From Patescibacteria group bacterium (GTDB lineage Bacteria; Patescibacteriota; Patescibacteriia; UBA2591; UBA6264), in assembly GCA_028713575.1 (NCBI GenBank), contig JAQTOB010000004.1:38393-70392 (forward strand): a DNA stretch of 32,000 bases, read 5' to 3'. The position numbers were made by a program, and so were the translations under genes. Shown piece after piece: positions 4,093-26,885 of the stretch; within the stretch, counting starts at the first letter, position 1, and each line of letters starts with the position of its first letter. The notes under the pieces are model-generated. The model was given only the letters and a program-made list of their open reading frames with translations, did not search any database and was not told the origin of the DNA.

Positions 4093-4800
4093 TTAGATAA
4101 TTGGGGTCGGAGATAATTGGGGTCTGACCCCATGAGCATCCCTTCTGAGATAATTGGGGTCTGACCCCATGAGTATCCCTTCTAAAACATACATGATAAT
4201 TGGGGTCTGATAATTGGGGTCTGACCCCATGAGCATCCCTTCTAAAACATACATCAATAAAGGATTATAGAACGAAAATTTCAATTTGGCGCGATTTTGA
4301 TTGATTTCCAATAATTTTTTATCAAAACAACGATTTTTGACACTAATTTTGGGGTCTACACTAATTTTGGGGTCTGACCCCATGAGCATCCCCTCTAAAA
4401 CATACATCAATAAAGGATTATAGAACGAAAATTTCAATTTGGTGTGATTTTGATTGATTTCCAATCACTAATTTTGGGGTCTGACCCCATGAGCATCCCT
4501 TCTAAAACATACATCAATAAAGGATTATAGAACGAAAATTTCAATTTGGTGTGATTTTGATTGATTTCCAATAATTTTTTATTAAAACAACGATTTTAAT
4601 TGAAAATTGATAATTATTTAATTTACATTTAATCACTAATTTTGGGGTCTGACCCCATGAGTATCCCTTCTAAAACATACATCAATAAAGGATTATAGAA
4701 CGAAAATTTCAATTTGGTGCGATTTTGATTGATTTCCAATAATTTTTTAACAAAACAACGATTTTAATTGAAAATTGATAATTATTTAATTTACATTTTG
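4093..4800. repeat. Tandem or nested intergenic repeat array built around the palindrome GGGGTC-T-GACCCC
   Basis: Full palindrome copies lie at 4119-4131, 4156-4168, 4216-4228, 4369-4381, 4476-4488 and 4644-4656, with truncated copies at 4101-4110, 4202-4210 and 4351-4357. Long units of about 105-165 bp (cactaattttggggtctgaccccatgagcatcccttctaaaacatacatcaataaaggattatagaacgaaaatttcaatttggtgtgattttgattgatttccaat...) start near 4211, 4358, 4466 and 4634. The last unit runs directly into the pilC start. Confidence 0.9.
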
Positions 4801-4838
4801 CATTTTGATTTTTCAGTTTTGAATTTAGCGAAGCGCTT

Positions 4839-6050
4839 ATGTTATTTGAATATCAAGCGAAAAATTTAAAAGGAGAAACCATCACCGGAACAATTGAATC
4901 CATTAATCAGAACGCCGCCCTTGAGATGTTGGCGCGCCGGCAAATGATTATTATCTCCCTGAAAGAAACAAGCGCTTTGCCCATTTGGCGCCGGCCGATT
5001 AATCTGTCTTTTTTAGAAAGAGTAACCGGCAAAGATATGGTTTTTCTTTCCCGCCAATTATCCGTAATGGTTATGGCGGGCTTGCCTTTGGTTGAATCTT
5101 TGGAAATTTTGGCGCGCCAAACAAGCAAACCGGCCTTAAAAAAGATTGTGGAAAGCGTTGCGGAAAATGTTCGTGGCGGTTCAAGATTTTCCAGCGCTTT
5201 AGCAAAGTATCCCAAAGTCTTCAACAATTTTTATATTAATATGGTGCGCGCCGGAGAAACCGCGGGCAAACTTGACGAAGTCTTAGATTATTTGGCCAAT
5301 GAACAGGAAAAAAATTATGATTTAATGAGTAAAATTAGGGGGGCTATGATTTATCCGATTTTTGTTATTTCTGCGGTTATTGGCGTGATGATTTTGATGA
5401 TGGTTTTTGTTGTCCCTCAATTAACTGACATTTTAAAGGAATCGGGCGTATCATTGCCCTTGCCAACCAAAATTCTTATTGCCACTAGCGATTTTTTAGA
5501 AAATTATACTTTATTAATCGTTTTGTTCCTTGTGGTTTTTGTTGTCGCTTTCAGGTTTTTTTTAAAAAGTAAAGCGGGTCAGATGATTTGGGACAAAACG
5601 CTTTTAAAAATGCCGATTTTTGGTGTTCTTTTTAAACAAGTTTATTTAGTTCGTTTTACTCGCAGTCTTTCTACTTTGATTATTGGCGGTATTCCTTTAA
5701 CCGCGGGATTAAAAATTGTTTCCGAAGTGGTAAGTAATTATGTTTTTAAAGAAATAATCCTTGACGCGATTATTGACGTGGAAGAGGGACGTTCGGTCAG
5801 CAATGCTTTTCTTAATTCTTCAGCCGTGCCTAAAATGCTTCCCCATTTAATGGCGATTGGAGAAGAAACCGGCAAGCTTGACGAAGTTTTGGGGAAAATT
5901 GCTGATTTTTATTCTCGGGAAGTGGAAAACATTTTAAGCAAATTAGTCACTTTGCTTGAACCGATTATTCTTATTTTTTTAGGAGTAGTTGTTGGCGGCA
6001 TGGTTGCTTCTATTATTTTGCCAATGTATAAACTTGCCACCGCCTTTTAA
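4839..6050 (+). CDS. pilC: Type IV pilus platform protein PilC (GspF family)
   Basis: 403 aa. It shows the internally duplicated T2SSF architecture (GETAGKLDEVLDYL and GEETGKLDEVLGKI in the two halves) and three hydrophobic TM segments. Confidence 0.92.
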   Translation: MLFEYQAKNLKGETITGTIESINQNAALEMLARRQMIIISLKETSALPIWRRPINLSFLERVTGKDMVFLSRQLSVMVMAGLPLVESLEILARQTSKPALKKIVESVAENVRGGSRFSSALAKYPKVFNNFYINMVRAGETAGKLDEVLDYLANEQEKNYDLMSKIRGAMIYPIFVISAVIGVMILMMVFVVPQLTDILKESGVSLPLPTKILIATSDFLENYTLLIVLFLVVFVVAFRFFLKSKAGQMIWDKTLLKMPIFGVLFKQVYLVRFTRSLSTLIIGGIPLTAGLKIVSEVVSNYVFKEIILDAIIDVEEGRSVSNAFLNSSAVPKMLPHLMAIGEETGKLDEVLGKIADFYSREVENILSKLVTLLEPIILIFLGVVVGGMVASIILPMYKLATAF

Positions 6051-6129
6051 TGCATTTTCCCTTAATGAAGTTTTTTTTGATGAGTTTTGATGAGGTGCGT
6101 TCCCATCAAGGGCGGGGAAAGTAAAATTT

Positions 6130-6204
6130 GGGCGCTTGGCTCAGTGGTAGAGCGTTTGCTTCACATGCAAAAGGCCACAGGTTCAAATCCTGTAGCGCCC
6201 ACCA
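6130..6204 (+). tRNA. tRNA-Val (anticodon CAC), CCA encoded
   Basis: Hand-folded cloverleaf: acceptor GGGCGCT/AGCGCCC, D arm GCTC-AGTGGTA-GAGC, anticodon arm TTTGC-TTCACAT-GCAAA, T arm ACAGG-TTCAAAT-CCTGT, discriminator A, then CCA. Confidence 0.9.
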
Positions 6205-6261
6205 GTATTAAAATATTTTAAAAATAGGTCGACACTTTAATAATTTTTTAACTTAAACATT

Positions 6262-6984
6262 ATGAAAAACAAAATTTTAGTCGTCGGAGTTTTTGTCTTT
6301 ATTTTTATTCTCGCCACCAATATGTATGCCATTGCTCAAAATGGCGATACCGGAATGGGTAATCAAATGCAACAGCGAATTCAGATTGACAATCAGAGCG
6401 AGAATGACCAAATCCAGACGCAAAACAGAGAACAAGTTCAATTAGAAATGAATGTTGAAATGGGCAATCAGGTGCAACAGCAAAATCAAGTGCAAAATCA
6501 AGGCGAAACAAGTCAACTTCAAAACAGCGAACAACAACAAACACAAACTCAAAAGAATTTATCTTTAAACGAACAGAGAAGAAGTCAAGTTGCCAATGCT
6601 GTGCAGGAAATGTTGCAGGTAGCGGAAAAAGATAGTGAAATGGGTCAGCAAATAAGAATAATTGCTCAAAATCAAAATCAAAATCAGGAAAAAATTGAAG
6701 ACAGTTTGCAAAAAGTCCAAAGCCGAAGCGGCTTTGTTAAATTATTTATCGGACAAAATTACGCAGAAATCAACAATATTAAAAAAATGTTGATGCAGAA
6801 TAAAGAACAGATTGAACAGTTAAACCAGATTAAAAATCAACTTGTTAATCAAGATGACCAGCAACAGTTAAATGAACAAGTTCAAGTTTTAGAGCAGACT
6901 AATTTGCAAGTTGGGAGTTCTTTGGAGGCGGCTCAAAAAGGATTCAGTTTATTCGGCTGGATGTTTAGAATGTTTGCCAAATAA
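6262..6984 (+). CDS. Secreted Q/N-rich low-complexity or coiled-coil protein (function unknown)
   Basis: 240 aa. It has an N-terminal signal-like segment (MKNKILVVGVFVFIFILATNMYAIAQ) followed by highly Gln/Asn/Glu-rich sequence (NQVQQQNQVQNQGETSQLQNSEQQQTQTQ...). Confidence 0.7.
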   Translation: MKNKILVVGVFVFIFILATNMYAIAQNGDTGMGNQMQQRIQIDNQSENDQIQTQNREQVQLEMNVEMGNQVQQQNQVQNQGETSQLQNSEQQQTQTQKNLSLNEQRRSQVANAVQEMLQVAEKDSEMGQQIRIIAQNQNQNQEKIEDSLQKVQSRSGFVKLFIGQNYAEINNIKKMLMQNKEQIEQLNQIKNQLVNQDDQQQLNEQVQVLEQTNLQVGSSLEAAQKGFSLFGWMFRMFAK

Positions 6985-7108
6985 TTTTTCGGCAGCGCAT
7001 AACTCCGTATAAAAGTGGCTTAAATTTGGCTAAATAATCATATTAATTTTTAAAGACTCGGTCTTCAAGGGGTCCTTTCGCTTGAATTGTAATTTTAATA
7101 AAATTTTT

Positions 7109-7942
7109 ATGCCTGAATTGCCCGAAGTGGAGACAATAAAAAGTCAGCTTAATCGTCGGCTTAAAGGGGGGAAAATAAAAAAAATAGAAATATTTTTGCC
7201 CAAAATTATCCGGTTGGAGGCAAAATTTTTTATTAACAAGACCGTGGGGGCGAAAATAAAAAAAGTTTGGCGTCGGGCCAAGATGATTATTATTGACTTA
7301 GATAATGGTTATTCTTTGCTGATTCATTTAAAATTGACCGGACGGTTGATTTTATGTCACCGGCTTCGGGAAGATTACCAAAAGCATACGCATTTAGTTT
7401 TCCATTTTTTTGACAAAAGTGTCCTGATTTTTCAGGATATCCGGCAATTCGGATATTTTGACCTTTATCGTACTGAAAACCTGAAGGGATTTTTTCAGGA
7501 AAAGAAACTGGGGCCTGAGCCCTTGAAAAAAAGTTTTACTTTAAAAAAATTTACTGAGTTATTAAGCAAAAAACCGGATAAAAAAATTAAACCCTTGTTA
7601 ATGGAACAAAATTTTATTGCCGGCATTGGCAATATCTATGCTCAGGAAATTTGTTGGTCGGCCAAAATTTCTCCTCTTCGTCTCGCCAAAACTTTGAATA
7701 AAAAAGAAATTCAAGAAATTTACCGCCACTTGCTCATGATTTTAAAAAAAGCCGTTAAACAGGGCGGAACCACAGCCGCGGATGAAGGGTATATTGATGC
7801 GCGAGGGAATAAAGGAAAATACGGCTCGCAACTAAAAGTTTATCAAAGAGAAGGGGAAAAATGTTTTCGTTGCAAAGGGATAATAGAAAGAATTGTTTTG
7901 ACCGGCAGGGGAACCGCTTATTGTCCTCGTTGTCAAAAGTAA
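7109..7942 (+). CDS. mutM: Formamidopyrimidine-DNA glycosylase (Fpg/MutM)
   Basis: The start is set at the ATG giving the canonical N-terminus MPELPEVE (catalytic Pro2/Glu3). It has an H2TH region (MEQNFIAGIGNIYAQEICW) and a C-terminal zinc finger CFRC...CPRC. Confidence 0.9.
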   Translation: MPELPEVETIKSQLNRRLKGGKIKKIEIFLPKIIRLEAKFFINKTVGAKIKKVWRRAKMIIIDLDNGYSLLIHLKLTGRLILCHRLREDYQKHTHLVFHFFDKSVLIFQDIRQFGYFDLYRTENLKGFFQEKKLGPEPLKKSFTLKKFTELLSKKPDKKIKPLLMEQNFIAGIGNIYAQEICWSAKISPLRLAKTLNKKEIQEIYRHLLMILKKAVKQGGTTAADEGYIDARGNKGKYGSQLKVYQREGEKCFRCKGIIERIVLTGRGTAYCPRCQK

Positions 7943-8035
7943 TCAAGAGTGATTGGTCGCGTTAAAAAACTCGCATGGAAATTTTTTAAAACAAATTTAA
8001 TCACCCCGGAGGAAATATATGATTTTCTAACGAGG

Positions 8036-8066
8036 TTGACAGAATTCAAACTTTTGATATTATAAA
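8036..8066 (+). promoter_or_regulatory. Candidate sigma70-type promoter for the gene at 8136
   Basis: TTGACA lies at 8036-8041, followed 16-19 nt later by an overlapping A/T-rich -10 region (gatattataaa). The downstream gene has a strong SD (aaaaggagg). Confidence 0.3.
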
Positions 8067-8135
8067 TCAATAAAGGGGAGTTTTTCTCCTGTTTTTTAAA
8101 TCTTTAAAATTAAATAAAAATAAAAGGAGGAAAAA

Positions 8136-8603
8136 TTGATTTGGTCAGAAATTATTGCCGGAATTTTACTTGTTGTCCGGTCAGAATTTGCTATTATGCA
8201 GTTTCACCATATTGGTTTAACAGCAATAATAGCTTTTCTGATTGTGACAATTTGGACCAATTTTAAAGTGGTCTTGATTTTTACGTCCACCGGCCTGGTT
8301 GACTGGTTGGTGGCGAAATTTGGAAAAAGGCACCGCCATCTGGGAGAGATGGCAGTTAATTGGCCTTGGTTAAAAAAAATAAATCAAGGGGTCAGGAGTG
8401 GCCGAAAAAAATTACTGGCTTGGCTAATCACTCATAATAAGCTGGCAATTTTCCTAATCTTGTTTGTTCCTTTTACGCCATTTATGGAAGATGTTGCCAT
8501 TGTGGCGGCGCGTATCGCCAAGATTAAGGGAGCATTGCCGCTGTTGCTTATCGCTAACACGGCGCGCATGGCCTTGATGACCTTTGTCGTGTATTTGTTT
8601 TGA
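8136..8603 (+). CDS. Small integral membrane protein (function unknown)
   Basis: 155 aa with a TTG start 5 nt after AAGGAGG. It contains 3-4 hydrophobic helices and no recognisable catalytic motif. Confidence 0.6.
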   Translation: MIWSEIIAGILLVVRSEFAIMQFHHIGLTAIIAFLIVTIWTNFKVVLIFTSTGLVDWLVAKFGKRHRHLGEMAVNWPWLKKINQGVRSGRKKLLAWLITHNKLAIFLILFVPFTPFMEDVAIVAARIAKIKGALPLLLIANTARMALMTFVVYLF

Positions 8604-8612
8604 AAATTATAT

Positions 8613-8727
8613 AAGAGGACGTTGAGAAACGTTCTCTTGTTCGTTTAAAAACAAAAATCGGAATACCGAAATTTGAACTCGGGCTTCCGCCAAGGGCGGA
8701 CCCGCCTTTGGCGGGAAATATTTTTTT
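8613..8727. terminator. Convergent terminator region between the gene at 8136-8603 (+) and tRNA-Pro (-)
   Basis: An 11-bp hairpin lies at 8613-8638 (aagaggacgtt-gaga-aacgttctctt, one G-U pair), just after the stop codon. GC hairpins tccgcc-aag-ggcgga (8686-8700) and ccgcc-ttt-ggcgg (8702-8714) are followed by T7 at 8721-8727. On the minus strand, tcgg-tatt-ccga is followed by a T-run. Confidence 0.45.
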
Positions 8728-8756
8728 AGCGAGTCATAACGATATCAATTTTAAAA

Positions 8757-8830
8757 TCGGGATGGTGGGATTCGCACCCACGGTCTCCACGTCCCGAACG
8801 TGGCGCATTAGACTACTATGCTACACCCCG
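8757..8830 (-). tRNA. tRNA-Pro (anticodon CGG), no encoded CCA
   Basis: Hand-folded on the reverse complement: acceptor CGGGGTG/CATCCCG, D arm GCAT-AGTAGTCTA-ATGC, anticodon arm CCACG-TTCGGGA-CGTGG, variable AGACC, T arm GTGGG-TGCGAAT-CCCAC, discriminator A. The T-loop reads UGCGAAU rather than the usual UUCGAAU. Confidence 0.85.
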
Positions 8831-8950
8831 ATTGGTGTAAATAATATAGATTATTTATGAAGATTTGACAAGGTCGCGCTTGAAATGTTTTCAAAATACT
8901 TTACTATAAATCAGGATGCGAGATGTTTAAATTAACCAAAAATCATATCC

Positions 8951-10108: not shown

Positions 10109-10111
10109 TTT

Positions 10112-10657
10112 ATGCCGCCCAAATTATTGCTTCATGTTTGTTGCGCCAATTGCGGAATAGTTCCCATTGAATTACTAAGAGACCGGTTTGACCTGACTTT
10201 ATTTTGGTATAATCCGAATATTTATCCCCGAACAGAATATCAAAAACGCTTGGCAGATGTTAAAAAATTAGTTAAAATATATAAAAAGGATTTGATTGTT
10301 GAAAACAATGATATTAAAAAGTGGTTTGAAATTACCAAAGAGCTGGAAAACGAGCCAGAAGGGGGTAAAAGGTGCGAAAAATGTTTTCAAATGCGATTAA
10401 GCCGAACCGCGCGGTTAGCCAAAGAAAAAAGTTTTGATTTTTTTGCCACTACTTTAAGTGTCGGACCGCAGAAAAGGGCGAAAATAATTAATAAATTGGG
10501 AGAAAAATTGGCGAAAGAATGCGATTTGAAATTTTACCCGGCGGATTTTAAAAAACAAGATGGATTTAAAAAAAGCGTTGAACTGAGCAAAAAATACGGG
10601 TTTTACCGCCAGCACTATTGCGGTTGCGTCTTTAGCATTAGAACGTCAAAACATTAA
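10112..10657 (+). CDS. queH: Epoxyqueuosine reductase QueH (DUF208 family)
   Basis: 181 aa with the family signature LLLHVCCANCG...WYNPNIYPRTEYQKR...EPEGGKRCEKCFQMRL...FFATTLSVGPQK...YRQHYCGCVFS. Confidence 0.85.
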   Translation: MPPKLLLHVCCANCGIVPIELLRDRFDLTLFWYNPNIYPRTEYQKRLADVKKLVKIYKKDLIVENNDIKKWFEITKELENEPEGGKRCEKCFQMRLSRTARLAKEKSFDFFATTLSVGPQKRAKIINKLGEKLAKECDLKFYPADFKKQDGFKKSVELSKKYGFYRQHYCGCVFSIRTSKH

Positions 10658-10660
10658 AAC

Positions 10661-11017
10661 ATGAAAACAAGTAGTTTTAAAGAAAATTTAAAAAAGAAAA
10701 TGGATGAATATGTTCATTTTGTTTATAAAATTACTCTTAATTTTCCTAAAGCGGAAATATATGGAACTGTTTCTCAATTAAGAAGGGCGTCTTTGTCGGT
10801 GGTTTTAAATTATATAGAAGGATTTGCCAGAAGAAAGAGACTTGTTCAATTGAATTTTTTAGAAATTTCTTACGGGTCGTTAAAAGAATCAAAATATCTT
10901 TTACATTTTGCTTTGATTGAAAATTATTTGGACACAAAAGACTATAAAATTGCTTTAAAAATGGCAGAAGAAATCGGAGCTATGCTTTGGACAGAAATAT
11001 CTAATTTAGATAAATAA
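10661..11017 (+). CDS. Four-helix-bundle protein (23S rRNA intervening-sequence protein family)
   Basis: 118 aa. The pattern FPKAEIYGTVSQLRRASLSVVLNYIEGFARR...ISYGSLKESKYLL is typical of this family. Confidence 0.8.
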   Translation: MKTSSFKENLKKKMDEYVHFVYKITLNFPKAEIYGTVSQLRRASLSVVLNYIEGFARRKRLVQLNFLEISYGSLKESKYLLHFALIENYLDTKDYKIALKMAEEIGAMLWTEISNLDK

Positions 11018-11060
11018 TTAATTGTTTTTTAGCCAAAGGCTGATCCGTCTCCGACGGAAA

Positions 11061-11124
11061 TGTTCTAATGTTCTAGTGTTTTAATGTTTTAATGTTTTTA
11101 TGTTTTTATGTTTTTATGTTTTTA
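11061..11124. repeat. Eight tandem copies of an 8-mer (TGTTYTWR) forming a sequence gradient
   Basis: The copies are tgttctaa, tgttctag, tgttttaa x2 and tgttttta x4, contiguous and ending at the ATG at 11124. Confidence 0.9.
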
Positions 11125-11468: not shown

Positions 11469-11480
11469 TTTTTATTTTTT

Positions 11481-12158: not shown

Positions 12159-12283
12159 AATTTGGAGCCGCCAGTTGGCGGGGAACAAATTTTAGAAACA
12201 AAACCTTTACCCCGCCCCCATTTTTTCTAAATTTTCTATAATATCCGACTATGTAGTATTATGTATATGTTCTACAAGATAAA

Positions 12284-18851: not shown

Positions 18852-18880
18852 AATTAAGCCGAAATTCGGTTTAAATAAAG

Positions 18881-19454
18881 AAAAGTCCTCCTATTTTTGA
18901 GGGGGTCTTTTCTTTGTTTTGAGACTCGGTTTCCCGTTGGAAACCGAGTCTCTTCACTTCTTGGTTGTTTTGAGACTCGGTTTCCCGTTGGAAACCGAGT
19001 CTCTTCACTTCTTGGCTTCCTGTTTAAAGTTCGGTTTCCCGCTTTGCTTCGTAGCGAGCTTTGCTCTGCTACTGGGGCTGGAAGCCGAACTTCTTTATTT
19101 TATAAAAAGCCACTTGGTCTTTAAAGTCCTCCTATTTTTGAGGGGGTCTTTTCTTTGTTTTGAGACTCGGTTTCCCGTTGGAAACCGAGTCTCTTCACTT
19201 CTTGGCTTTGATACTTTGGCGCAATCCCTGATTATGCCGGCTATGGCCGATTTAGCGCAATAAAGCTTCTATTATATATACACTTTGTTTTGAGACTCGG
19301 TTTCCCGTTGGAAACCGAGTCTCTTCACTTCTTGGCTTCCTGTTTAAAGTTCGGTTTCCCGCTTTGCTTCGTAGCGAGCTTTGCTCTGCTACTGGGGCTG
19401 GAAGCCGAACTTCTTTATTTTATAAAAAGCCACTTGGTCTTTAAAGCCTTTTTT
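18881..19454. repeat. Composite intergenic repeat island with a 32-nt perfect palindrome (x4) and a duplicated ~170-bp segment
   Basis: GAGACTCGGTTTCC-cgtt-GGAAACCGAGTCTC lies at 18921-18952, 18972-19003, 19162-19193 and 19292-19323. The segment at about 18963-19134 is repeated at about 19283-19454 (offset 320 bp). It contains a long hairpin, gttcggtttcc...ggaagccgaac, at 19027-19092 and 19347-19412, followed by a T-rich tract. The element aaagtcctcctatttttgagggggtcttttc occurs at 18882 and 19123. Confidence 0.9.
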
Positions 19455-19546
19455 ATAGGGAGGTTTGACCCCTTCCTCTTGTTATAAATATTATAAATGT
19501 TATAATAATTTTCTACTATTTTCGTAAAATTTTCGTATTTCGTAGC

Positions 19547-20077
19547 ATGTTCCACCTCAGAGAGAAAATCCTTTTTCATCAAATTAAAAACGGTGACGAA
19601 CAGGCCTTCACCGTCTTTTATAATACCTATAAAGACAGAATTTATCGTTTTATTTATTTTAAAGTTTCTGATCGTGAAAAAGTTTATGATTTGGTTTCCG
19701 AAGTTTTTATTAAAATATATGATTATATTAAAGAGGGGAATGACATTGATAATTTTCAAGCTTTTTTGTATAAAATCGCTCGTAATTTAGTAATAGATTT
19801 TTATCGCACTAAAAAAGAGGAAATTTCTTTAACTGATGCGCCGGAAACAGTTTCTCCTATCAATTTAGAAAAAGAAGTGGGAGATAAGGTTGCCGTGGAA
19901 AACGTCAAAAGATACCTTAATAAAATTAAACCAGAATACCGCGAAGCGGTTCATCTTCATTTTTTTGAAAATTTTTCTTTTTCCGAGATTGCGGATATTA
20001 TCAATCAATCCGAAGGCAATGTTAGGATTAGGGTTTATCGCGGCATTAAGCAATTAAAAGAGGTTTTAAGGGGTTGA
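19547..20077 (+). CDS. ECF-type (sigma-70 family, group 4) RNA polymerase sigma factor
   Basis: 176 aa. Region 2 is AFTVFYNTYKDRIYRFIYFKV...FQAFLYKIARNLVIDFYR. Region 4 HTH is YREAVHLHFFENFSFSEIADIINQSEGNVRIRVYRGIKQLKE. Confidence 0.9.
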   Translation: MFHLREKILFHQIKNGDEQAFTVFYNTYKDRIYRFIYFKVSDREKVYDLVSEVFIKIYDYIKEGNDIDNFQAFLYKIARNLVIDFYRTKKEEISLTDAPETVSPINLEKEVGDKVAVENVKRYLNKIKPEYREAVHLHFFENFSFSEIADIINQSEGNVRIRVYRGIKQLKEVLRG

Positions 20078-20595
20078 ACCCCTTCTATATGTAGGGGTTC
20101 AACCCCCTCCCCAATAATCGCCATCATAAACTTTTTACACAGGAACTTTTTACACATTTTTACACAGGACATTTTTACACAGGTTGAACCTGTGTAAATT
20201 TTCATTTGCATATTTCACAAAACAAATCCAAAATCCAAAACCCAAATTTTCATAATCACTTGGGAACCGAGTTTCTAAAAAGCAAGAAAGCAAGAGATGG
20301 ATTCTACGCTAGAAACTCGGTTTCCCGTTGGAAACCGAGTTTCCTTCTCCCCAATAATCGCCATCATAAACTTTTTACACAGGAACTTTTTACACATTTT
20401 TATACAGCACATTTTTACACAGCACATTTTTATACATTTTTACACAGGTTGAACCTGTGTAAATTTTCATTTGCATATTTCACAAAACAAATCCAAAATC
20501 CAAAACCCAAATTTTCATAATCACTTGGGAACCGAGTTCCTAAAAAGACATTTTTACACAGGTTGAACCTGTGTAAATTTTCATTTGGCATTTAG
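20068..20595. repeat. Composite intergenic repeat island with GGGGTT-G-AACCCC and TACACAGGTT-G-AACCTGTGTA palindromes and TTTTTACACA reiterations
   Basis: aaggggttgaacccctt (20068-20084) contains the sigma stop codon, and its inverse aggggttcaacccct lies at about 20093-20107. A block of about 175-200 bp (ctccccaataatcgccatcataaac...cacttgggaaccgagtt.ctaaaaag) occurs at about 20107-20282 and about 20346-20547, with a third partial copy at 20548-20595. A variant of the 18921-type palindrome lies at 20312-20343. Confidence 0.9.
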
Positions 20596-20631
20596 TCATT
20601 TGATATTGATTTGACATTTGACATTGGAAAT

Positions 20632-20661
20632 TTGACATTTCACGTTTTAATGGTGTATAAT
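20632..20661 (+). promoter_or_regulatory. Near-consensus sigma70-type promoter upstream of the gene at 20725
   Basis: TTGACA (20632-20637), an 18-nt spacer, then TATAAT (20656-20661). Two additional TTGACA copies lie at 20611 and 20618 within an ATTTGACAT reiteration. Confidence 0.5.
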
Positions 20662-20724
20662 TTTTCCCCTTTCTTCGTCTTATTATTTGTCATTTAGCCA
20701 TCAAATAGTTAAATCTCAATTTCA

Positions 20725-21702: not shown

Positions 21703-22035
21703 TTTTTTAAAAAAGTATTCGCAATATTTAGATAAATTCGTAATTTAGAATTATTTAACTAACTAACCATTAATATAATTTTCCCCCTTGGTGAAAGTTG
21801 ATTCTCTGTCGATAGTCAGCGATTAGCTAATCCTTCGCGGGAATTAAAGGTCGAGCTCAATTTTGAGAAATTTTCGGACATCGGGATATCCCCCGAGAGT
21901 TTCAAGAAAAGAGCGGGGTAAAAATAATAAATATACGAATAATCATGAATTATAAAACAAAATACCAATCGCGAATTCGTGATTAGTTAAAATTCGTTCA
22001 AAATTCGTGAAAATTCGTAATAATTAGAGGATTAA

Positions 22036-25000
22036 ATGAATAAACTTAAAAAATTGATTGCTTTGGGAACAACCGTTTCAATGCTTTTGAGTTTAGTAGT
22101 GGTGATGCCTGCTCGAGCCGTGACCATCGCCGATGGCGATTTGGTTATGACCACCAGCAGCTCTGCTGTTTACTATATTCAAGGAGCGTATAAACGCGTT
22201 TTTCCTCATTATAATGTCTATCTTTCTTGGGGCTATCCTTCTGATTTTTCTACCGTTAAAACGGTCAGCACTTCGGAATTAGCCTCTTATACCGACGCCA
22301 ATCCAATGCCGTTCCGCGACGGAGCGCTCTTCCGCGGCACTGCTGCCAGTTTAGGCGATAAAGATGCAACTGCTGTTTTTTATGTTGAAAACGCTCAGCT
22401 TCGCCCTGTTTTATCAGAGCAAGTTTATCAAGCGTTATTCAAAGATACAGACTGGGCAAAAGTTACTTGGGTTCCTGATGATTTATTGAGCAAATTCAAT
22501 TATGAAATGGGCTCAAATCTTTCTTCATCTTCAACCCATCCTGATGGCAGTTTGGTCAAGTATTCTAACTCAGACCAAATTTATGTCATTGAAAGCGGAA
22601 AAAAGAGAGCGATTTCTGCTACGGCTTTTGATGCCAACCGCTATAGTGTCGCCAATGTCATTACCATTGACTCAAGCGAAACTTATGCTAACGGTTCGGC
22701 TGTCACTGGCGTTGAATCCAGCTTATTAACACCAGGTTGGCTTGGAACCACTGTTGCTTCCGGTGCTTTGACCGCGAGTTTATATAACCCTCCGGCTGGC
22801 GCCACTATTCCGAACAAAGCTACTAATGTTTCTCTTTTAAAAGTTAAATTAACCGCGGGTAATACCGCTGCCACTATTAGTGGTTTGACTTTTAAGAGGA
22901 GTGATTTGGGCGCAACCACTGATTGGGACACCCTTTATGTTTATGAAGGGAATGATTGTATTACTCCCAATGGCCGTAGCTTAAGTTCGGACGACCATAC
23001 TGTTGAATTCGCGGTAAACATTAGCGTTCCTGCTAATGGTTATAAAGTTCTTGAATTGCGCGGTGATTTGAAAGCCGGTGGCGCGACCGCCAACAACCGC
23101 CATGCTTTCCAAATAACTGAGGTAGCAACTTCAGCCACGGTTAGCGGCTTGCCTTTAACTGGCAATGTGATGATTGTCGGCTCGGTCAATGTAACCACTG
23201 CTATTATCAGCGCCGGCACCCTTCCGATCAATCCTTCGGTCGGTGCTCAGGACGCCGAAATCGCCAACTTTAAGATTCAGGCCGGCGATAACGACATTAC
23301 TTTCAGCCAGATCGTCTTCACCTTTGCTGGCACTATGTCCAGAGGCGATATCACTAATCTTAATCTTTATTTGCTTGGTGAAACCGAATCTTTGGCGAGT
23401 GTTTCCGGTATCGCTTCCAACGACACCTTCACTTTGACTCTTGATTCTCCCTATGTCATTACTAAAGGACAGACCAAAAATTTTGTGTTAAGAGCTGATT
23501 TGACTGGTGAAGTCGGACGAACTTTGGAGATGTATATGGAAGAAACCTATCATTTGGCGGTTAGCGACAACGAATATAATTTCGGCGCCGCTGTCACCAA
23601 TAGTTTTGGCAACGCCGATGTGACTGCGTTAACTTTACAGGGTGGTGAAATCACCATGGCTGATAACGGTCCTTTGGCAGGAAATGTTGCGCAAAACCAA
23701 CAGGATGTGGTTTTAACCAAAATTGCTATTACTGCTGACCGGAGCATTGAAGTCCGCAAGTTATTTGTTACCTTGGCCAGTGATGTGGCGGGTGCTGCTA
23801 ACCCGACTGACGGAGTCAGCGACTTAAGAATTAAAGATGAAGATACTGGTCAAACTTTGATGACTCCGACTTCTGCAGTCGGCACCACCATCTCCGGTAA
23901 TTATCTGATGACTGGAACCTTTAATTTAACCGCCAATACTACCCGTAATTTAGTTATTACGGTTGACATTGGTGTTGATGCGGGTGATGCCCTTGACGGC
24001 AAATATGTTTCAGCCGACTTAAAAATGGTTGACCGCAGCGACGATTCAGTGGCGGACAACAGTAGCGGTGAAGAAGCGCAGATGCGTGATTCTTCCACTG
24101 GCGACTGGATTTTAACCGCTGATATTATTCCGATTAGCGTTTCTGGCGAACACCAGACTATCCAAACCCCGGCTTTGACCACGGCTGTGGCTTCAACTCC
24201 GGTTTCCGGCTTGACTTCCATTAAGGGTGCGTCAAAAGTTGATGGTATTGGCATTGTCTTTACCGCCGGTGATGCTTCTGCTGTTTCTTTACGGCAGTTC
24301 TCAGTCAGAGCTTATGTCAACAGCGCCGCTACTTTCTTGGCGACCAATGAAGACACTTCTCCGACTGGCGAAGTCACCACGGTCTACTTGTATGATGACT
24401 CCGGAACTTTATTGGCTTCTAAAACATTAAGTGCCACTTCCGCGAATCATGATTATGGCGCGGCTACTTTCAGTGGTCTTACTGTTACCATTCCGGCTGG
24501 TGAAAACAAGAAATTAACGGTTAAATTTGATGTCAATTCAACTTTAGAGGCGGCTAGATATGTTGCCTTTGGTATTGACGACGCGAGCATTACTGCTTAT
24601 GACAGCGAAGGTTCAACCGTGGATGTCACGGGCGACCTGAATTTCTACGCCAGCGACCTCAGCGTTCCGACTCACTACACTTATCTTGACACCGGTGGCG
24701 CTTTAACCATGGCGCAGGATCCGTCAACGCCTGATTCAGATATTGTTTTGGCGGGCGCGACTGACGTGATTATGTCCAAGATTAAATTCACCGCTACCAA
24801 AGAAGATTGGACGGTCAGTAAGTTGAGAGTTGAAATGGCTACTTCAGCCAATGAGAGCAGCGTCTCTAAAGTCAAGATTTCTTATCCGGGCGGTAGCGCC
24901 ACGGGCACTTTGTCCGGCGGTTTTGCTAAATTCACTGGCCTTAACTGGCTAATTGAAAAAGACACCGAAGAAATTTTGACCATCAGCGTTGATTTGGCGG

Positions 25001-25785
25001 ATATCAATCAGGATATCGCCACCACTGGTCGCGACTTGAAGGTCGGCCTTGATTGTTCCGATGCTGACGACGATTGTGAAGCCATCGGCACCTCTTCAAC
25101 CGTTTTGGGCGATGCTGACAGTGAGTTAAGCGATGTGGACGGCAACTCAATGTATTTGAGAAAGTCTCGTCCGACCGTTGCTGCTGCTTCTTTACCATCA
25201 AGTCAATTAATTAATGGAACCAGAGTCATTAACAAGTTCACTGTTACAGCTGATGCTGCGGGTGCCATCACCCTTAAGAAATTCAGTTGGGACGTTAATG
25301 TGAGCGACTACAATACTGACGGTTTATCTGTCACTAATTGGAGAGTTTATGACACTGGTAATTCAACCGCTTTGGCTGGTCATTGGTCAAACGCTACAAC
25401 CACCAGCACTTCTGGCGCGATTGCCGTTACCAACGGAGCCAAGGTTATGATTGTTGAACTTGATGACGAAATCGAAATTGCTGCCGGCACTAGCAAAACA
25501 TTTGAGTTAAAAGCAGATGTTTCTAGCGCTGCCATTTACGATTCAGTCAGCTCAAGCTTACTCAACGATGATAACGACACAGCGGTTAGAACCGGCGGTT
25601 TAGCCGACCATGATACCCAAGGTGTCCAACTTGAAGGCAGTGTTGCCGTTGATTTCCTCTGGTCTGATAAGGCCCGGGGTGCCAACCACACTGATTCATA
25701 CCAGACAACCTATGATGACTGGACCAATGGTTACTTGATTGACGTGTTGCCGACCGAAACTGTCTCATTGATCTATCCTAGCTAA
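22036..25785 (+). CDS. Giant secreted surface (S-layer or adhesin-like) protein: N-terminal 'VY..G.KR' repeat module plus reiterated beta-sandwich modules
   Basis: 1249 aa with an SD (agagga) and a signal peptide (ALGTTVSMLLSLVVVMPARA). Residues of about 30-230 are homologous to the C-terminus of the 14109 protein. After that come about 8 divergent modules of roughly 110-130 aa sharing a pattern such as ...V.L.K.K.TA....V....F.... The composition is rich in T/S/A/G/D. Confidence 0.9.
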   Translation: MNKLKKLIALGTTVSMLLSLVVVMPARAVTIADGDLVMTTSSSAVYYIQGAYKRVFPHYNVYLSWGYPSDFSTVKTVSTSELASYTDANPMPFRDGALFRGTAASLGDKDATAVFYVENAQLRPVLSEQVYQALFKDTDWAKVTWVPDDLLSKFNYEMGSNLSSSSTHPDGSLVKYSNSDQIYVIESGKKRAISATAFDANRYSVANVITIDSSETYANGSAVTGVESSLLTPGWLGTTVASGALTASLYNPPAGATIPNKATNVSLLKVKLTAGNTAATISGLTFKRSDLGATTDWDTLYVYEGNDCITPNGRSLSSDDHTVEFAVNISVPANGYKVLELRGDLKAGGATANNRHAFQITEVATSATVSGLPLTGNVMIVGSVNVTTAIISAGTLPINPSVGAQDAEIANFKIQAGDNDITFSQIVFTFAGTMSRGDITNLNLYLLGETESLASVSGIASNDTFTLTLDSPYVITKGQTKNFVLRADLTGEVGRTLEMYMEETYHLAVSDNEYNFGAAVTNSFGNADVTALTLQGGEITMADNGPLAGNVAQNQQDVVLTKIAITADRSIEVRKLFVTLASDVAGAANPTDGVSDLRIKDEDTGQTLMTPTSAVGTTISGNYLMTGTFNLTANTTRNLVITVDIGVDAGDALDGKYVSADLKMVDRSDDSVADNSSGEEAQMRDSSTGDWILTADIIPISVSGEHQTIQTPALTTAVASTPVSGLTSIKGASKVDGIGIVFTAGDASAVSLRQFSVRAYVNSAATFLATNEDTSPTGEVTTVYLYDDSGTLLASKTLSATSANHDYGAATFSGLTVTIPAGENKKLTVKFDVNSTLEAARYVAFGIDDASITAYDSEGSTVDVTGDLNFYASDLSVPTHYTYLDTGGALTMAQDPSTPDSDIVLAGATDVIMSKIKFTATKEDWTVSKLRVEMATSANESSVSKVKISYPGGSATGTLSGGFAKFTGLNWLIEKDTEEILTISVDLADINQDIATTGRDLKVGLDCSDADDDCEAIGTSSTVLGDADSELSDVDGNSMYLRKSRPTVAAASLPSSQLINGTRVINKFTVTADAAGAITLKKFSWDVNVSDYNTDGLSVTNWRVYDTGNSTALAGHWSNATTTSTSGAIAVTNGAKVMIVELDDEIEIAAGTSKTFELKADVSSAAIYDSVSSSLLNDDNDTAVRTGGLADHDTQGVQLEGSVAVDFLWSDKARGANHTDSYQTTYDDWTNGYLIDVLPTETVSLIYPS

Positions 25786-25788
25786 ATT

Positions 25789-26150
25789 CTTTGGAGACCA
25801 GGTCTCCAAAGATAGATATAACGTTTGACTGAAGCGCGTGTCCGCCTCTGGTGGACTAAAATCAGTCCATCTGGAATAATATAATAAAAATATTAGTTCC
25901 ATCGCCAAAATCCCCTTAACAGGGGATTTTGGCTTTTAAAAGGGCGCAATACCTGCCTATCGGCAGGTTTTGGAGACCAGGTCTCCAAAAAAAGTCTCCA
26001 AAAAAATCTTGCGAGGTTTTTTAGTTTTAGAGACCAGTTTTTTGGAGACCTGGTCTCCAAAAAACCCTGCGAGGCCTTTTAGGGATTGTTTTTTTTAAAT
26101 TAAAATATTATAATAATTGGAGACCTAATTTGGAGACCTGGTCTCCAAAT
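25789..26150. repeat. Cluster of REP-like palindromes TTGGAGACC-W-GGTCTCCAA with half-sites
   Basis: Full palindromes lie at 25789-25811, 25968-25990, 26038-26064 and 26128-26150. Half-sites lie at 25994-26006, 26025-26037 and 26117-26125. A co-repeated CTGCGAGG motif lies at 26009 and 26067. Confidence 0.9.
25904..25937 (+). terminator. Rho-independent terminator downstream of the 1249-aa gene
   Basis: A perfect 13-bp stem GCCAAAATCCCCT-taac-AGGGGATTTTGGC is followed by TTTT. Confidence 0.7.
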
Positions 26151-26174
26151 TACTCCAAATTAAAAAATAGCCTT

Positions 26175-26885
26175 ATGAGAAAAATTAAATTTGTTAATGA
26201 TGAGTATTATCATATTTATAACCGTGGAGTAGATAAACGGATTATTTTTGAGGATAAAGATGATTTAAAAAGATTTTTCCAAAGTATGAAAGAGTTTAAT
26301 GTTTTAGAGCCAATAGGTAGCATTTATGAAGCGGTTCGTTGTAAAACTTTTAGAGAAACTTTTGGAGACCAAGTCTCCAAAAGTTTTACAAATAATGAAA
26401 GATTGGTTGATTTTATTTGTTACAATTTACTTCCCAATCATTATCATTTCATTTTAAAACAGTCAGTTGAAGATGGAATTAAGAAATTTATGCATAGACT
26501 CGGATTGGGTTACGCAATGTTTTTCAATCAAAAGTATAAGCGCAACGGTTCATTGTTCCAAGGACCGTTTAAGGCGATTCATATTGATTCCGAAGCTTAT
26601 TTGCTTCACTTGAGCGCTTATATTAATTTGAATCATAGGGTTCATTCTAAATTTGAGGATTTTGGAGACCTTGAGGATTTTGGAGACCTGGTCTCCAAAA
26701 GATATAAATCAAGCTGGGAGGAATATTTGGGATTAAATCAAGAAAAATTTTGTCAAAAGGAAATTCTTTTAGACCAATTTGACACAATAAAAAGCTATAG
26801 AGAGTTTGCCGAAGAATCATTAAAAGGAATAAGAGAAAGAAAGGAAATAAAAAAGTTTCTTTTAGATGATCAAATAATTGGTTGA
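26175..26885 (+). CDS. Y1/HUH tyrosine transposase of the IS200-like / REP-associated (RAYT) type
   Basis: It carries YHIYNRGVDKRIIF..., an HUH motif in LPNHYHFILKQ, GSLFQGPFKAIHI, and a catalytic-Tyr helix LSAYINLNH. The ATG at 26175 is preferred over the TTG at 26130, which lies inside a palindrome. The CDS contains in-frame copies of the flanking palindrome. Confidence 0.8.
   Translation: MRKIKFVNDEYYHIYNRGVDKRIIFEDKDDLKRFFQSMKEFNVLEPIGSIYEAVRCKTFRETFGDQVSKSFTNNERLVDFICYNLLPNHYHFILKQSVEDGIKKFMHRLGLGYAMFFNQKYKRNGSLFQGPFKAIHIDSEAYLLHLSAYINLNHRVHSKFEDFGDLEDFGDLVSKRYKSSWEEYLGLNQEKFCQKEILLDQFDTIKSYREFAEESLKGIRERKEIKKFLLDDQIIG

Follow-up and report, generated by a model that had tools for sequence, protein, structure and literature searches.

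Palindromes in the stretch of DNA analysed here (32,000 nucleotides in full; referred to as the window) are probably hairpin repeats of a REP-like kind on which RAYT-like Y1/HUH tyrosine transposases act, a reading that draws on sequence comparison and a structural model and in which the enzymatic activity is predicted. The genome of origin is small, low in GC and Patescibacteria-like (candidate phyla radiation). The window has 15 perfect palindromes whose arms reach 10 nt or more, whereas 30 block shuffles averaged 0.13 and never exceeded 1; with arms of 7 nt or more the numbers were 31 and 4.1, respectively. Thirteen of the 15 long palindromes were intergenic and the other two were copies of one family (i.e. 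family E) lying within an ORF. The cores of all five palindrome families described in the initial annotation (i.e. A to E) were present at the positions given there, and its interpretation held in part: a hairpin and a Y1 transposase were borne out, while a concentration after long or highly expressed genes and a large dispersed investment were not. The proposed design, an odd palindrome with a single central base, was seen in A, C, D and most of E but not in the E copy at 26356, which has a 3-nt loop; the proposed GGTY-N-RACC centre was correct for A, C and D, with family E exhibiting the mirror form GACC-W-GGTC. Elements absent from that annotation were family F, module X and half-site 'stutters' beside many palindromes (Table 1).

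Table 1. Positions in the window of the RAYT-like gene, the palindrome families and associated modules
Feature	Position	Strand	Remarks
RAYT-like Y1/HUH tyrosine transposase gene	26175-26885	+	236 aa; HUH at H89/H91, Tyr149 in YINLN
Family E, three copies upstream of gene	25788-25812, 25968-25990, 26037-26065		Identical in all strain contigs
Family E right-arm stutter	25991-26003		Within upstream stretch 25788-26065
Family E left-arm half-site	26117-26128		Precedes slot-U copy
Family E copy, upstream slot U	26126-26152		Centre 36 nt before ATG
Family E copy, slot I1	26356-26386		In frame, before HUH motif; encodes FGDQVSK
Family E copy, slot I2	26657-26700		In frame, after catalytic Tyr; core starts at 26678; 18-nt left-arm stutter; encodes EDFGDLEDFGDLVSK
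Family A array, six TGGGGTCTGACCCCA palindromes	4093-4800	+	Between pilT and pilC; units roughly 110-170 nt; copies start at 4118, 4155, 4215, 4368, 4475, 4643; left-arm half-sites at 4102, 4201, 4350
T1, terminator-like hairpin and T-tract of 1580-aa gene	18887-18915; duplicate 19128-19156	+	From terminator scan
Family B, four 32-nt palindromes GAGACTCGGTTTCC-CGTT-GGAAACCGAGTCTC	18921-19323		14+4+14, each within 51-nt unit; copies start at 18921, 18972, 19162, 19292
Module X, B-like inverted repeat AAGTTCGGTTTCC...GGAAGCCGAACTT	19027-19092, 19347-19412		45-nt spacer; 162-nt duplicate, 100% identity
Family C, two GGGGTT-[G/C]-AACCCC palindromes	20068-20108		Opposite loop orientation; copies at 20070 (centre G) and 20094 (centre C, flipped form)
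Family D, three TTTACACAGGTTGAACCTGTGTAAA palindromes	20132-20577	+	Copies at 20174, 20439, 20553; tandem left half-sites TTTTTACACA precede the first two
Family F, ACTTGGGAACCGAGTT[TC]CTAA, decayed palindrome	20258-20280; 20523-20545		Foot ACTTGG-GAAC-CGA-GTT[TC]-CTAA
B' variant GAAACTCGGTTTCC-CGTT-GGAAACCGAGTTTC	20312-20343		Compensatory G-C to A-T change relative to B

A RAYT-like gene amid family E palindromes

The initial annotation had guessed at a Y1 transposase, and a gene of this kind was found in the window amid family E on the evidence of Pfam and the predicted fold. The gene itself had not been spotted at that stage. Its product matched Pfam Y1_Tnp with an E value of 7e-6, exceeding the curated cut-off, and more than 3500 homologues were found; source names of the 120 homologues listed were all of Patescibacteria type, some having been named RayT by JGI. 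By sequence similarity, the gene belongs to a very large and mostly patescibacterial family. The HUH histidines and the tyrosine were invariant across 80 sequences. An AF2 model of the protein had as its top PDB match the E. coli REP-associated tyrosine transposase (4er8_A, a TnpAREP structure with a bound REP hairpin); next came the TnpA proteins of ISDra2 and IS608. A PDB profile search with the protein gave no sequence-level match, and its score against the NCBIfam RAYT equivalog model was 20.7 bits, far under the cut-off of 80.

Family E (core TTGGAGACC-W-GGTCTCCAA) has six copies in the window, of which four (starts at 25788, 25968, 26037 and 26126) lie upstream of the gene and two (26356 and 26678) inside the ORF, where they bracket the HUH...Tyr core in frame. 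The slot I1 copy maps to a low-confidence loop of the model (residues 48-72) and the slot I2 copy overlaps another (161-173). The foot of family E in this genome is TTTGG/CCAAA. A search of about 43 kb of this genome gave no family E copy beyond these six. Sequence comparison and the structural model identify family E as the cognate hairpin of the RAYT-like gene, the activity of the enzyme being a prediction.

Fixed slots and stem covariation in related loci

Palindromes were compared in 80 related metagenome loci, with slot and peak counts given over 81 loci. Positions relative to the ATG fell into four sharp peaks, and most of the 80 loci had palindromes in up to four slots, at about -40, +185, +460 and the stop codon (occupancy in the 81 loci: U 67, I1 50, I2 46 and S 55). 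Each locus had its own palindrome of the form (C)ACTTGG-N4-N3-N4-CCAAGT(G), in which the foot is conserved and symmetric and the inner stem of 4-5 bp is free to vary and co-varies, complementarity always being kept. Palindromes in this class frame numbered 205 at the gene as compared to 20 in 538 kb elsewhere in the related loci (i.e. 0.037 dispersed copies per kb), with 0-1 in shuffles. Arm identity was 0.92 within a locus versus 0.65 between loci. Among 65 distinct palindromes from the related loci, both partners had changed in nine of ten stem pairs, and covariation scored 0.564 as compared to 0.196 for shuffled columns and at most 0.11 for slid ones; as the sites had been chosen as palindromic, the percentage of paired cells is inflated. 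Loop orientation of copies within a locus was random (71 same, 61 flipped and 11 other for copies with identical arms), and the copies were usually identical.

The in-frame slots were also visible in the proteins. Of the 120 homologues listed, 98 have the peptide [LF][GR]xxxxK ahead of HUH and 90 have it behind Tyr; the two peptides were at least 6/7 identical in 53 of the 75 proteins having both, as compared to 9% for pairs taken across different proteins. These peptides coincide with the two low-confidence loops of the protein model.

Were the palindromes instead duplex operators bound by a dimeric protein, possibly the RAYT-like protein as an autorepressor, their perfect two-fold symmetry, conserved outer half-site ACTTGG and fixed spacing would be expected, and one copy always lies in a promoter or leader region. 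This was the least probable reading considered: an inner 4-5 bp that varies yet stays complementary is needed by a hairpin but not by a dimer touching the outer half-sites only, the ORF-internal and stop-codon sites have no obvious operator role, and the predicted fold of the associated protein is that of a nuclease binding single-stranded hairpins.

Relationships among orthologues point to REP-like hairpins as well. Three related contigs have the upstream 1249-aa gene in common, one of them (L007) additionally sharing the downstream gene and DUF5667, and all three (L006, L007 and L008) differ in their palindromes at aligned positions. Four genomes kept the RAYT-like gene in the same gene order, with neighbours that are just 42-58% identical. 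The inner arm was shared in 91-100% of pairs at 80% protein identity or above and in 2-5% of pairs under 65%. In sequence alignments of these syntenic, vertically inherited orthologues, palindrome and protein change in step. Stem covariation, together with orthologues carrying different yet perfect palindromes at matching positions, agrees with the earlier proposal of selection for the hairpin rather than for primary sequence; homogenisation of the hairpin would fit as well. The suggestion of one paralogue per family was directly visible on one related contig (L040), where two RAYT-like paralogues each have their own palindrome in equivalent slots.

The same data bear on whether the gene and its outer hairpins (slots U and S) form an autonomous IS200-like insertion sequence, with the palindromes as subterminal ends instead of host-resident REPs. 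A unit of about 750 nt between identical hairpins is comparable to IS200 in length and arrangement, IS608 and ISDra2 TnpA have a similar fold as well, and many homologues lie on short contigs, as is often the case for repeated elements. Such an element is nonetheless improbable: the gene is syntenic among these diverged neighbours, none of the loci had a second, identical copy, the L040 paralogues share only about 40% identity with the query and differ in their hairpins, the nearest structure is the domesticated TnpAREP and not an IS TnpA, and in-frame internal hairpins are foreign to IS200.

Further palindrome families and variation between strains

The remaining families of the window occur in intergenic mosaics. 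In family A, the tail module ATTTGGTGCGATTTTGATTGATTT follows the copies at 4215, 4368, 4475 and 4643. A second, diverged family A unit (L305, 1318-1420) lies about 3.9 kb upstream of the window start, which places it about 8 kb before the array; A was the one family for which such a diverged copy outside the window was shown. RAYT-like genes with the family A core beside them were also found in Marinobacter (three loci) and in a Victivallales MAG (one locus). Family B, with a DNA fold of -16.6 kcal/mol (z -7.7), is regarded as an inverted doublet because either arm itself forms a REP-like mini-hairpin, GAGAC-TCG-GTTTC. Module X (fold z -4.7) and family C (z -5.9) were found in all strains, and the first C copy overlaps the stop codon of an ECF sigma gene. 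Family F has the canonical foot, and its left side agrees with the class consensus from related loci. Families A-D share the design of E and, judged by sequence, seem to be additional families of that type or orphans of it; no RAYT-like gene for them was found within about 43 kb of this genome.

Copy numbers were unstable between strain contigs that are about 99.6% identical to one another. Family B has two copies in two strains (L315 and L316), four in the window and four otherwise arranged in a further strain (L314), which also has two B' copies; the 265-nt F-B'-D unit, of which family D is part, is present in 1, about 1.6 or 2 copies by strain, family A in 6 versus 5, and T1 is single-copy in the other strains. 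Much of the multiplicity is therefore local tandem amplification. The large investment in dispersed families that had been claimed is weakened by this instability, by the confinement of family E to one locus within about 43 kb and by the 205 versus 20 copies in relatives. Since dispersed copies are rare, the class is unlike classical high-copy REPs.

These differences between strains, along with duplicates in the window of 162 nt (100% identity) and 114 nt (99% identity), the single family E locus and a chimeric protein query from repeat ORFs that had no match elsewhere, would fit purely local segmental or tandem duplication of hairpin-bearing intergenic DNA, with no mobilising enzyme and a design reflecting the generic stability of short GC-rich hairpins in an AT-rich genome. 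As a full account this is unlikely. It leaves unexplained the four fixed slots, two of them in frame, at a Y1 gene in most of 80 loci, a foot that is conserved while the inner stem is free, the identity within loci with divergence between orthologues, the diverged family A unit 8 kb away and the family A cores at RAYT-like genes of other phyla. The differing left and right neighbours of the B units (i.e. T1|B, B|B, B|X, B|U and U|B) are likewise not the product of simple tandem duplication.

Every family lies downstream of a co-oriented gene, as would be expected if the palindromes acted in RNA or transcription as intrinsic terminators or as mRNA-stabilising and processing hairpins at gene ends; E. 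coli REPs, a precedent for such a role, stabilise upstream mRNA. In a terminator scan, D was the sole family fitting a stem then TTTTCATTT, and the T1 hairpin also fitted a stem plus T-tract. A function of this kind is very doubtful for the palindromes as a class. Families A, B, C and E lack a T-tract and none was called terminator-like, the T (5') and A (3') flanks of family E extend the stem and form no U-tail, two family E copies are within an ORF, termination needs no arrays of 4-6 copies, and an Rfam search returned no match. Nor was the proposed concentration after long or highly expressed genes supported: just two of the four repeat-bearing spacers follow long genes, and family E tracks the transposase gene and not the long one.

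Known systems and a proposed mechanism

Several known repeat systems share features with the window. E. coli BIMEs and BOX/RUP are intergenic mosaics of a few short modules, variable in order and number and strain-specific. The window mosaics are similarly composed of hairpins with tail or linker motifs and differ between strains, but they are unrelated in sequence, and one of the window mosaics encloses a cognate transposase-like gene. Rickettsia palindromic elements are in-frame in protein-coding genes, where they are tolerated as surface peptides; these elements are 100-150 nt, are inserted in many unrelated genes and are not known to have a cognate enzyme, whereas the in-frame palindromic repeats described here are 21-23-nt hairpins at conserved sites in the enzyme's own gene. 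The IS200/IS605 elements IS608 and ISDra2 have in common with the window the Y1/HUH fold, recognition of single-strand subterminal hairpins and a compact size, about 0.7 kb per unit. They differ in being multi-copy and mobile, the gene here being syntenic and apparently single-copy, and in having distinct imperfect left and right ends in place of identical perfect palindromes; the gene here also has no tnpB partner and has internal hairpins.

The closest parallel was with the REP/RAYT 'REPtrons' of Enterobacteria and Pseudomonas (PMC6006769, PMC5581495, PMC3116915; 4er8), in which one Y1/HUH gene is likewise flanked by its own short palindromes. In both, every paralogue is matched to a family of its own, the gene is passed on vertically (in synteny here), and hairpins are found either way round as well as in inverted doublets (here the REPIN-like B, X and C); TnpAREP is the closest solved structure to the window protein. 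Differences were that the class consensus lacks the 5' GT[AG]G guide that marks canonical REPs and has the symmetric foot ACTTGG/CCAAGT instead; that the palindromes are perfect and very short; that dispersed copies amount to about 0.04 per kb and not to hundreds per genome; that copies occupy four fixed positions, two in frame within the gene; and that the protein is about 60 aa longer C-terminally and far below the RAYT equivalog model. In Quentin et al. (2018, PMC6006769), TnpAREP subclass 2.4 is described with in-frame REPs inside the transposase gene, in a peripheral loop, and with 'double-foot' REPs symmetric at both ends, features also seen here. Set against that description, the two conserved slots here lie outside the insertion segment, before HUH and after Tyr, are filled in most of 80 loci (75 of the 120 listed homologues at the peptide level) and have a different foot sequence.

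Under the REP-like reading, the palindromes would extrude as hairpins on single-stranded DNA, and the enzyme would read the foot and the hairpin shape and cut and rejoin DNA beside the hairpin. Hairpins could thereby be copied into, or substituted at, existing hairpin sites, a process that would homogenise the slots and occasionally seed new intergenic copies, with drifting stems being fixed only as compensatory pairs. Where local copy number is high, hairpins may have stimulated tandem or segmental amplification, with half-site 'stutter' adding to it, and the outcome is unstable between strains. Families A, B, C, D, F and G would then be further families of the same design, either cognates of paralogues elsewhere in the genome or orphans of specificity turnover.

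Palindromic repeats of the window and their local amplification

The window has a GC content of ~36% and carries all of its genes on the + strand (among them pilB/pilT/pilC, fpg, two tRNAs, a 23S-IVP/bAvd protein, a 1580-aa NHL-repeat protein, an ECF sigma factor with a DUF5667 partner, and a 1249-aa surface protein). The five palindrome cores of the initial annotation (families A to E) were all found in place, confirming the observation itself; the interpretation put on them was only partly supported. Family E was present at its site but comprised six copies in total, two of them within an ORF. Perfect palindromes with arms of at least 10 nt numbered 15 in the window as compared to 0.13 expected, and those with arms of at least 7 nt numbered 31 as compared to 4.1. 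As single-stranded DNA, families B, C, D and E and module X (a B-like inverted doublet with a 45-nt spacer) exhibited folding z-scores of -4.3 to -7.7 relative to shuffled sequence; the family A hairpin is short and its fold was marginal (z of -1.8 against shuffles). Families A to D had a common design, namely a short stem ending R-Y with a 1–3-nt loop, and a foot that was often TTGG...CCA or ACTT...AAGT. Related elements beyond these five were F, module X and many half-sites. Family B is an inverted doublet in which each arm (GAGAC-TCG-GTTTC) is itself a mini-hairpin similar to the class palindrome described below, and element B' differs from B by one compensatory pair.

Coordinates of features in the window and on related contigs
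Feature	Sequence	Position	Remark
Family A	Window	4093-4800	
Flank-plus-one-arm duplications	Window	4102, 4201, 4350, 26119, 26664	26664 in frame
AT-rich repeats around 23S-IVP/bAvd-like gene	Window	10636-10669, 11069-11110	Inverted and tandem
23S-IVP/bAvd-like gene	Window	10661-11017	
One-T difference	Window	17929	T absent from L314
Family B	Window	18921-19323	
Module X	Window	19027, 19347	
Family C	Window	20070-20107	
DnaA-box-like matches	Window	20133-20552	
Family D	Window	20180, 20445, 20560	
Element F	Window	20258, 20523	
Sigma-70-type promoter	Window	20632-20661	TTGACA-18-TATAAT
Family E	Window	25789-26701	
GC-rich hairpin	Window	25904-25933	13 bp
Right-arm duplication	Window	25991	
Transposase gene	Window	26175-26885 (+)	236 aa
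TTACAA duplication	Window / L002	26386 / 4910-4915	6 nt, in frame
Sigma-70-type promoter	Window	26886-26914	TTGACA-17-TAAAAT with TG
(AG)17 microsatellite	Window	28922-28955	
Diverged family A unit and palindrome G	L305	1304-1600	Spacer before lgt
Second RAYT-like paralogue	L049	11792-12463	33% identity

The pattern of an intrinsic terminator (i.e. a GC-rich stem with a T-run directly after it on the transcribed strand) was exhibited by family D and the T1 hairpin alone and was lacking in families A, B, C and E. In an Rfam 15 scan of the window only the two tRNAs passed, the repeats matching eukaryotic miRNA models far below threshold. Between family E copies, upstream of the transposase gene and after ~100 nt of unannotated sequence, a GC-rich hairpin (GCCAAAATCCCC-TTAA-CAGGGGATTTTGGC, then TTTT) could be a candidate terminator of a short transcript. 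A relaxed DnaA-box consensus (TTWTNCACA) had 11 matches on the + strand of the window, of which 9 are half-sites of family D (TTTTTACACA); a replication origin at this site is unlikely because GC skew keeps its sign across the window. The DUF5667 gene and the 473-aa gene next downstream of the transposase gene are each closely preceded by a near-perfect sigma-70-type promoter. The AT-rich repeats bracketing the 23S-IVP/bAvd-like gene consist of CATTAGAACGTCAAAACATTAAAACATG / TGTTTTAATGTTTTAATGTTTTTATG, repeated, and an apparent deletion of this gene in the NCBI MAG is a run of N.

Near-identical contigs were obtained from a JGI metagenome (the 98.8-kb Ga0378408_0000398), NCBI MAG GCA_028711035.1, ENA and Logan assemblies. 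These strains are ~99.3–99.9% identical and exhibited strong local instability of the repeats. Upstream of the sigma-factor gene, family B was present in four copies in the window, in four copies with a different arrangement in L314 (JGI) and in two copies in both L315 (ENA) and L316 (JGI). A 265-nt unit (i.e. F-B'-half-sites-D) occurred about 1.6 times in the window, twice in L314 and once in L315. Family A palindromes numbered six in the window and five in L305 (JGI), and those of family E numbered six in the window and in each of L314, L001 and L002. Tandem duplications of a flank plus one arm, with the junction at the palindrome centre, were observed at several sites in the window (see table) and within the half-site arrays of family D. 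Right-arm counterparts occurred in both the window and L305, and the same pattern was present in an unrelated Victivallales MAG. These duplications point to events at the hairpin apex. Loss of one T in L314 splits the 1580-aa NHL-repeat gene into ORFs of 1274 and 305 aa, reflecting either a strain frameshift or an assembly error. At the (AG)17 microsatellite the NCBI MAG differs in length by 4 nt, and several short-read contigs end there.

Dispersal was observed at one locus, the spacer before lgt on L305, ~3.9 kb upstream of the window start, which is the only such evidence in this genome. This spacer contained a diverged family A unit (i.e. palindrome plus ATTTGGTGCGATTTTG tail module) and a new palindrome, G (ACTTCTTGCAGGTC-A-GACCTGCAAGAAGT, 14-nt arms), with a right-arm stutter and the same tail module. 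The module has the form ATTTGGTG[CT][GA]ATTTTG after both palindromes and was found only in strains of this genome, always downstream of a palindrome. Family E was absent elsewhere in ~43 kb of this genome. The five families had been proposed to be dispersed, as opposed to products of duplication restricted to the window. Much of their multiplicity proved to be local amplification; they are nevertheless not confined to one spot, as the family A unit on L305 demonstrates, and family E is tied to a dedicated enzyme gene. A second proposal, that the repeats concentrate after long or highly expressed genes, found no support. Repeats occur in four spacers, located behind genes of 364, 1580, 176 and 1249 aa; another three spacers, 330–690 nt in length, are without such palindromes; and in syntenic orthologues family E tracks the transposase gene and not the long gene as such.

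A RAYT-like transposase gene with hairpins in four slots

The initial annotation had suggested a search for one Y1 transposase paralogue per family, and for family E such a gene was found amid its copies. The product matched Pfam Y1_Tnp (E of 7e-6; 26.6 bits with a cut-off of 23), and residues H89 and H91 (HUH) and Y149 (YINLN motif) were invariant in 80 sequences. The top Foldseek match of an AlphaFold model (pLDDT 77, pTM 0.76) was 4er8_A (E of 2e-4, probability 1.0, TM-score on target 0.61), the REP-associated tyrosine transposase of E. coli in complex with a REP hairpin; the next-best folds were ISDra2 TnpA and IS608 TnpA. The NCBIfam RAYT equivalog NF047646 (cut-off of 80 bits) was not reached by the window protein (20.7 bits) or by a paralogue on contig L040 (42.8 bits), and the window protein is distant at the level of sequence. 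A 16-sequence profile had no match to PDB sequences at E up to 1, and the link to TnpAREP therefore rests on the Pfam match and the fold comparison.

Four family E copies lie within 390 nt upstream of the gene (-387, -207, -138 and -49 relative to the ATG) and two within it (+181 and +503), with a TTTGG/CCAAA foot. Both in-ORF copies read TTT GGA GAC CWG GTC TCC AAA, encoding F-G-D-Q/L-V-S-K. The two peptides map to the only two loops modelled with low confidence (residues 48-72 and 161-173) and are therefore probably tolerated surface insertions. The NCBI MAG strain has an in-frame duplication of TTACAA directly 3' of the first in-ORF hairpin.

Homologues of this protein number more than 3500 and, among the 120 listed, were annotated almost only as Patescibacteria, Parcubacteria or Niyogibacteria; the source was accordingly regarded as a member of the candidate phyla radiation. 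In the protein alignment, two variable segments of the [FL][GR]xxxxK type were apparent in every homologue and were similar to one another within one protein. The motif occurred before HUH in 98 and after the Tyr in 90 of the 120 homologues listed, and the two motifs were identical at 6 or more of 7 positions in 53 of the 75 proteins with both, as compared to 9% for pairs from different proteins. Near-perfect palindromes were then mapped relative to the start codon in 80 fetched metagenome loci with relatives 47–68% identical. Four sharp peaks were observed, at -60 to -1, +150 to +239, +420 to +539 and +600 to +749, occupied in 67, 50, 46 and 55 of 81 loci, respectively, with at least three filled in 51 of 81. 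In the first and last of these (the upstream and stop-codon slots) the palindrome is perfect and identical, and two further copies are in frame within the ORF. A consensus drawn from 65 distinct palindromes was nCACTTGGAnGCnnnGCnTCCAAGTGn, with the layout nCACTTGG-A-n-G-C-nnn-G-C-n-T-CCAAGTGn and no 5' GTAG or GTGG guide.

Hairpin and enzyme gene are associated. Palindromes in the class frame numbered 205 within -300 to +1000 of the gene as compared to 20 in the other 538 kb and 0–1 in shuffles. Copies within a locus were homogeneous (mean arm identity 0.92, 64% of pairs identical), as compared to an identity of 0.65 between loci. In viral contigs, at least 120 matches to CACTTGG-N11-CCAAGTG were obtained, all single and probably due to chance. 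Hairpins are not carried by all members of the wider RAYT-like family; on L049 the slots of a second RAYT-like paralogue, 5 kb from the first, were without palindromes.

Covariation of the stem and co-divergence with the protein

Covariation was assessed using the 65 distinct palindromes, one per locus. Changes on both sides were observed in nine of ten stem pairs (134 cells), giving a covariation score of 0.564 as compared to 0.196 with columns shuffled and no more than 0.11 with partners slid. Each of the four inner pairs exhibited 2–5 pair types and the outer ACTTGG/CCAAGT foot was nearly fixed. The pairing figure of 98.8% is circular because sites were selected by palindromy, a circularity that does not extend to the diversity of pair types seen at fixed positions. 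Syntenic orthologues provided independent support. Loci L006, L007 and L008 have the upstream 1249-aa gene in common (54–58% identity), L007 additionally sharing the downstream gene and DUF5667, and their aligned transposase genes contain different perfect palindromes at the same codons with conserved flanking codons. Arms that differ yet stay complementary, in both data sets, support selection or homogenization acting on the hairpin over primary sequence.

The inner arm diverged along with the protein, being shared by 91–100% of pairs at protein identities of at least 80%, by 18% at 65–80% and by 2–5% below this range. Among pairs with identical arms, the 3-nt loop was the same in 71, reverse-complemented in 61 and different in 11. 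Loop orientation is thus random, an outcome expected if hairpins are copied in either direction or loops invert frequently, and not if point mutation is responsible. Judged from sequence comparison, the transposase gene appears to be vertically inherited and resident rather than an insertion sequence. Whereas IS200/IS605 elements occur as several near-identical copies in one genome, an identical second copy of the gene was absent from all 80 loci, the flanks of which amount to 538 kb, and synteny speaks against its having moved recently. The distinct imperfect left and right hairpins and hairpin-free gene of IS200/IS605 elements were also not found; instead, two hairpins lie inside the ORF and the ends carry the same perfect palindrome.

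Other repeat families, known systems and significance

One repeat family per paralogue was observed on L040, where two RAYT-like paralogues 3.2 kb apart contain ACTTGGGGGTGAAACCCCCAAGT and GAAGGTTTAACCTTC, respectively, in equivalent slots. The palindrome of the second paralogue occupies positions -36 and +161 (the latter in frame) and a site behind the stop codon, and its core, GGTT-N-AACC, is like those of families C and D. Family A (TTGG-GGTC-T-GACC-CCA) resembles the class member ACTTGGGGGTC[CG]GACCCCCAAGT of two loci (L059 and L085). Genome contigs scanned for the family A 18-mer yielded 99 stretches, with the source genome not among them, and GGGGTC[TA]GACCCC was found as a multi-copy repeat in many phyla. 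The core flanks a RAYT-like gene in three Marinobacter loci and one Victivallales locus, often as inverted doublets with 40-nt spacing. In Marinobacter (L251, L258 and L237), such doublets of GGGGTC[AT]GACCCC flank the RAYT-like genes, an arrangement that is a classical REPtron and has its 13-nt core in common with family A. The core also makes up the tip of longer hairpins in Massilia and Pseudoduganella, which are specific to each locus. An uncultured Victivallales MAG (CAZYVR01; L207, L214, L217, L250 and L263) contains the multi-copy core TTGGGGTCTGACCCCATG in at least 12 copies on nine contigs with its own tail, TTATGGGCTTTTTTCTTGTGTTTTAAATTC. Left-arm stutters with locus-specific flanks also occur there (e.g. 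TAGATGCTTGGGGT three times before the full palindrome), and on L250 a RAYT-like ORF lies ~380 nt from two copies of the core. Peptide signatures expected of a RAYT with family A, C or D hairpins (GVRP, GSDP, WGQTP and others) were absent from the 120 homologues listed. A chimeric query of family A, B and D unit translations gave no matches and was uninformative, because it also missed the ORF called on the L305 family A array.

REP/RAYT systems, REPtrons and the pairing of each paralogue with a repeat family of its own are well known (PMC6006769, PMC5581495, PMC3116915), and in-frame REP insertions between HuH and Y were described for subclass 2.4 genes by Quentin et al. (PMC6006769). In the genes studied here, too, the product has the Y1 HUH fold, the HUH motif and the catalytic tyrosine, and the gene is flanked by its specific palindromic repeat. 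In contrast to REP-RAYT systems, the foot is a symmetric ACTTGG/CCAAGT without GT[AG]G, four slots are conserved, and dispersed copy number appears very low (20 class-frame copies in 538 kb away from the gene in related loci). The layout recurs in most of the 80 loci from a family of more than 3500 members, mostly from Patescibacteria, hairpin turnover is documented among syntenic orthologues, and, unlike in subclass 2.4 (PMC6006769), the in-frame slots lie outside the HUH-Tyr segment. In full-text searches of the literature, no link of RAYTs, REPs or REPINs to candidate-phyla bacteria was found beyond passing KEGG annotation.

In the proposed mechanism, hairpins would form on single-stranded DNA and the enzyme would read foot and shape, by analogy with the reading of GTAG plus hairpin by TnpAREP (PMC6006769). 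The enzyme would catalyse copy or replacement events by which slots are homogenized and new sites occasionally seeded, and the hairpins may also provoke slippage or breakage. A tentative extension, which we consider rather unlikely, is that the RAYT-like genes of Patescibacteria, a very large family, are self-referential, each gene bearing its own recognition hairpin as codons at two fixed positions on either side of the catalytic core and as single copies in the leader and at the stop codon, with enzymatic copying maintaining the identity of all copies as they co-diverge with the protein.

Of these results, the link to a RAYT-like gene whose hairpins are self-encoded and co-evolving is the most useful. 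The role of RAYTs and the spread and homogeneity of REP hairpins have been open questions for more than a decade, and this family offers thousands of natural enzyme–hairpin pairs with the hairpin at known positions in and around the gene. The conserved foot and variable stem provide a ready-made covariation data set of protein residues against hairpin bases and a simple assay design (i.e. foot swaps versus stem swaps). Hairpin arrays are hot spots of strain-level structural variation and also fragment short-read assemblies, and in-frame hairpin codons can lead gene annotation and motif discovery astray. Such a system is maintained even in candidate-phyla genomes that are very small and streamlined. 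If the self-referential reading were true, the gene's own slots, and not a dispersed REP population, would be the primary substrate and could be master copies or conversion templates; recombination or excision between in-frame hairpins could remove the HUH-Tyr core and switch the enzyme off; and the several orphan families of one genome would preserve earlier specificities in fossil form.
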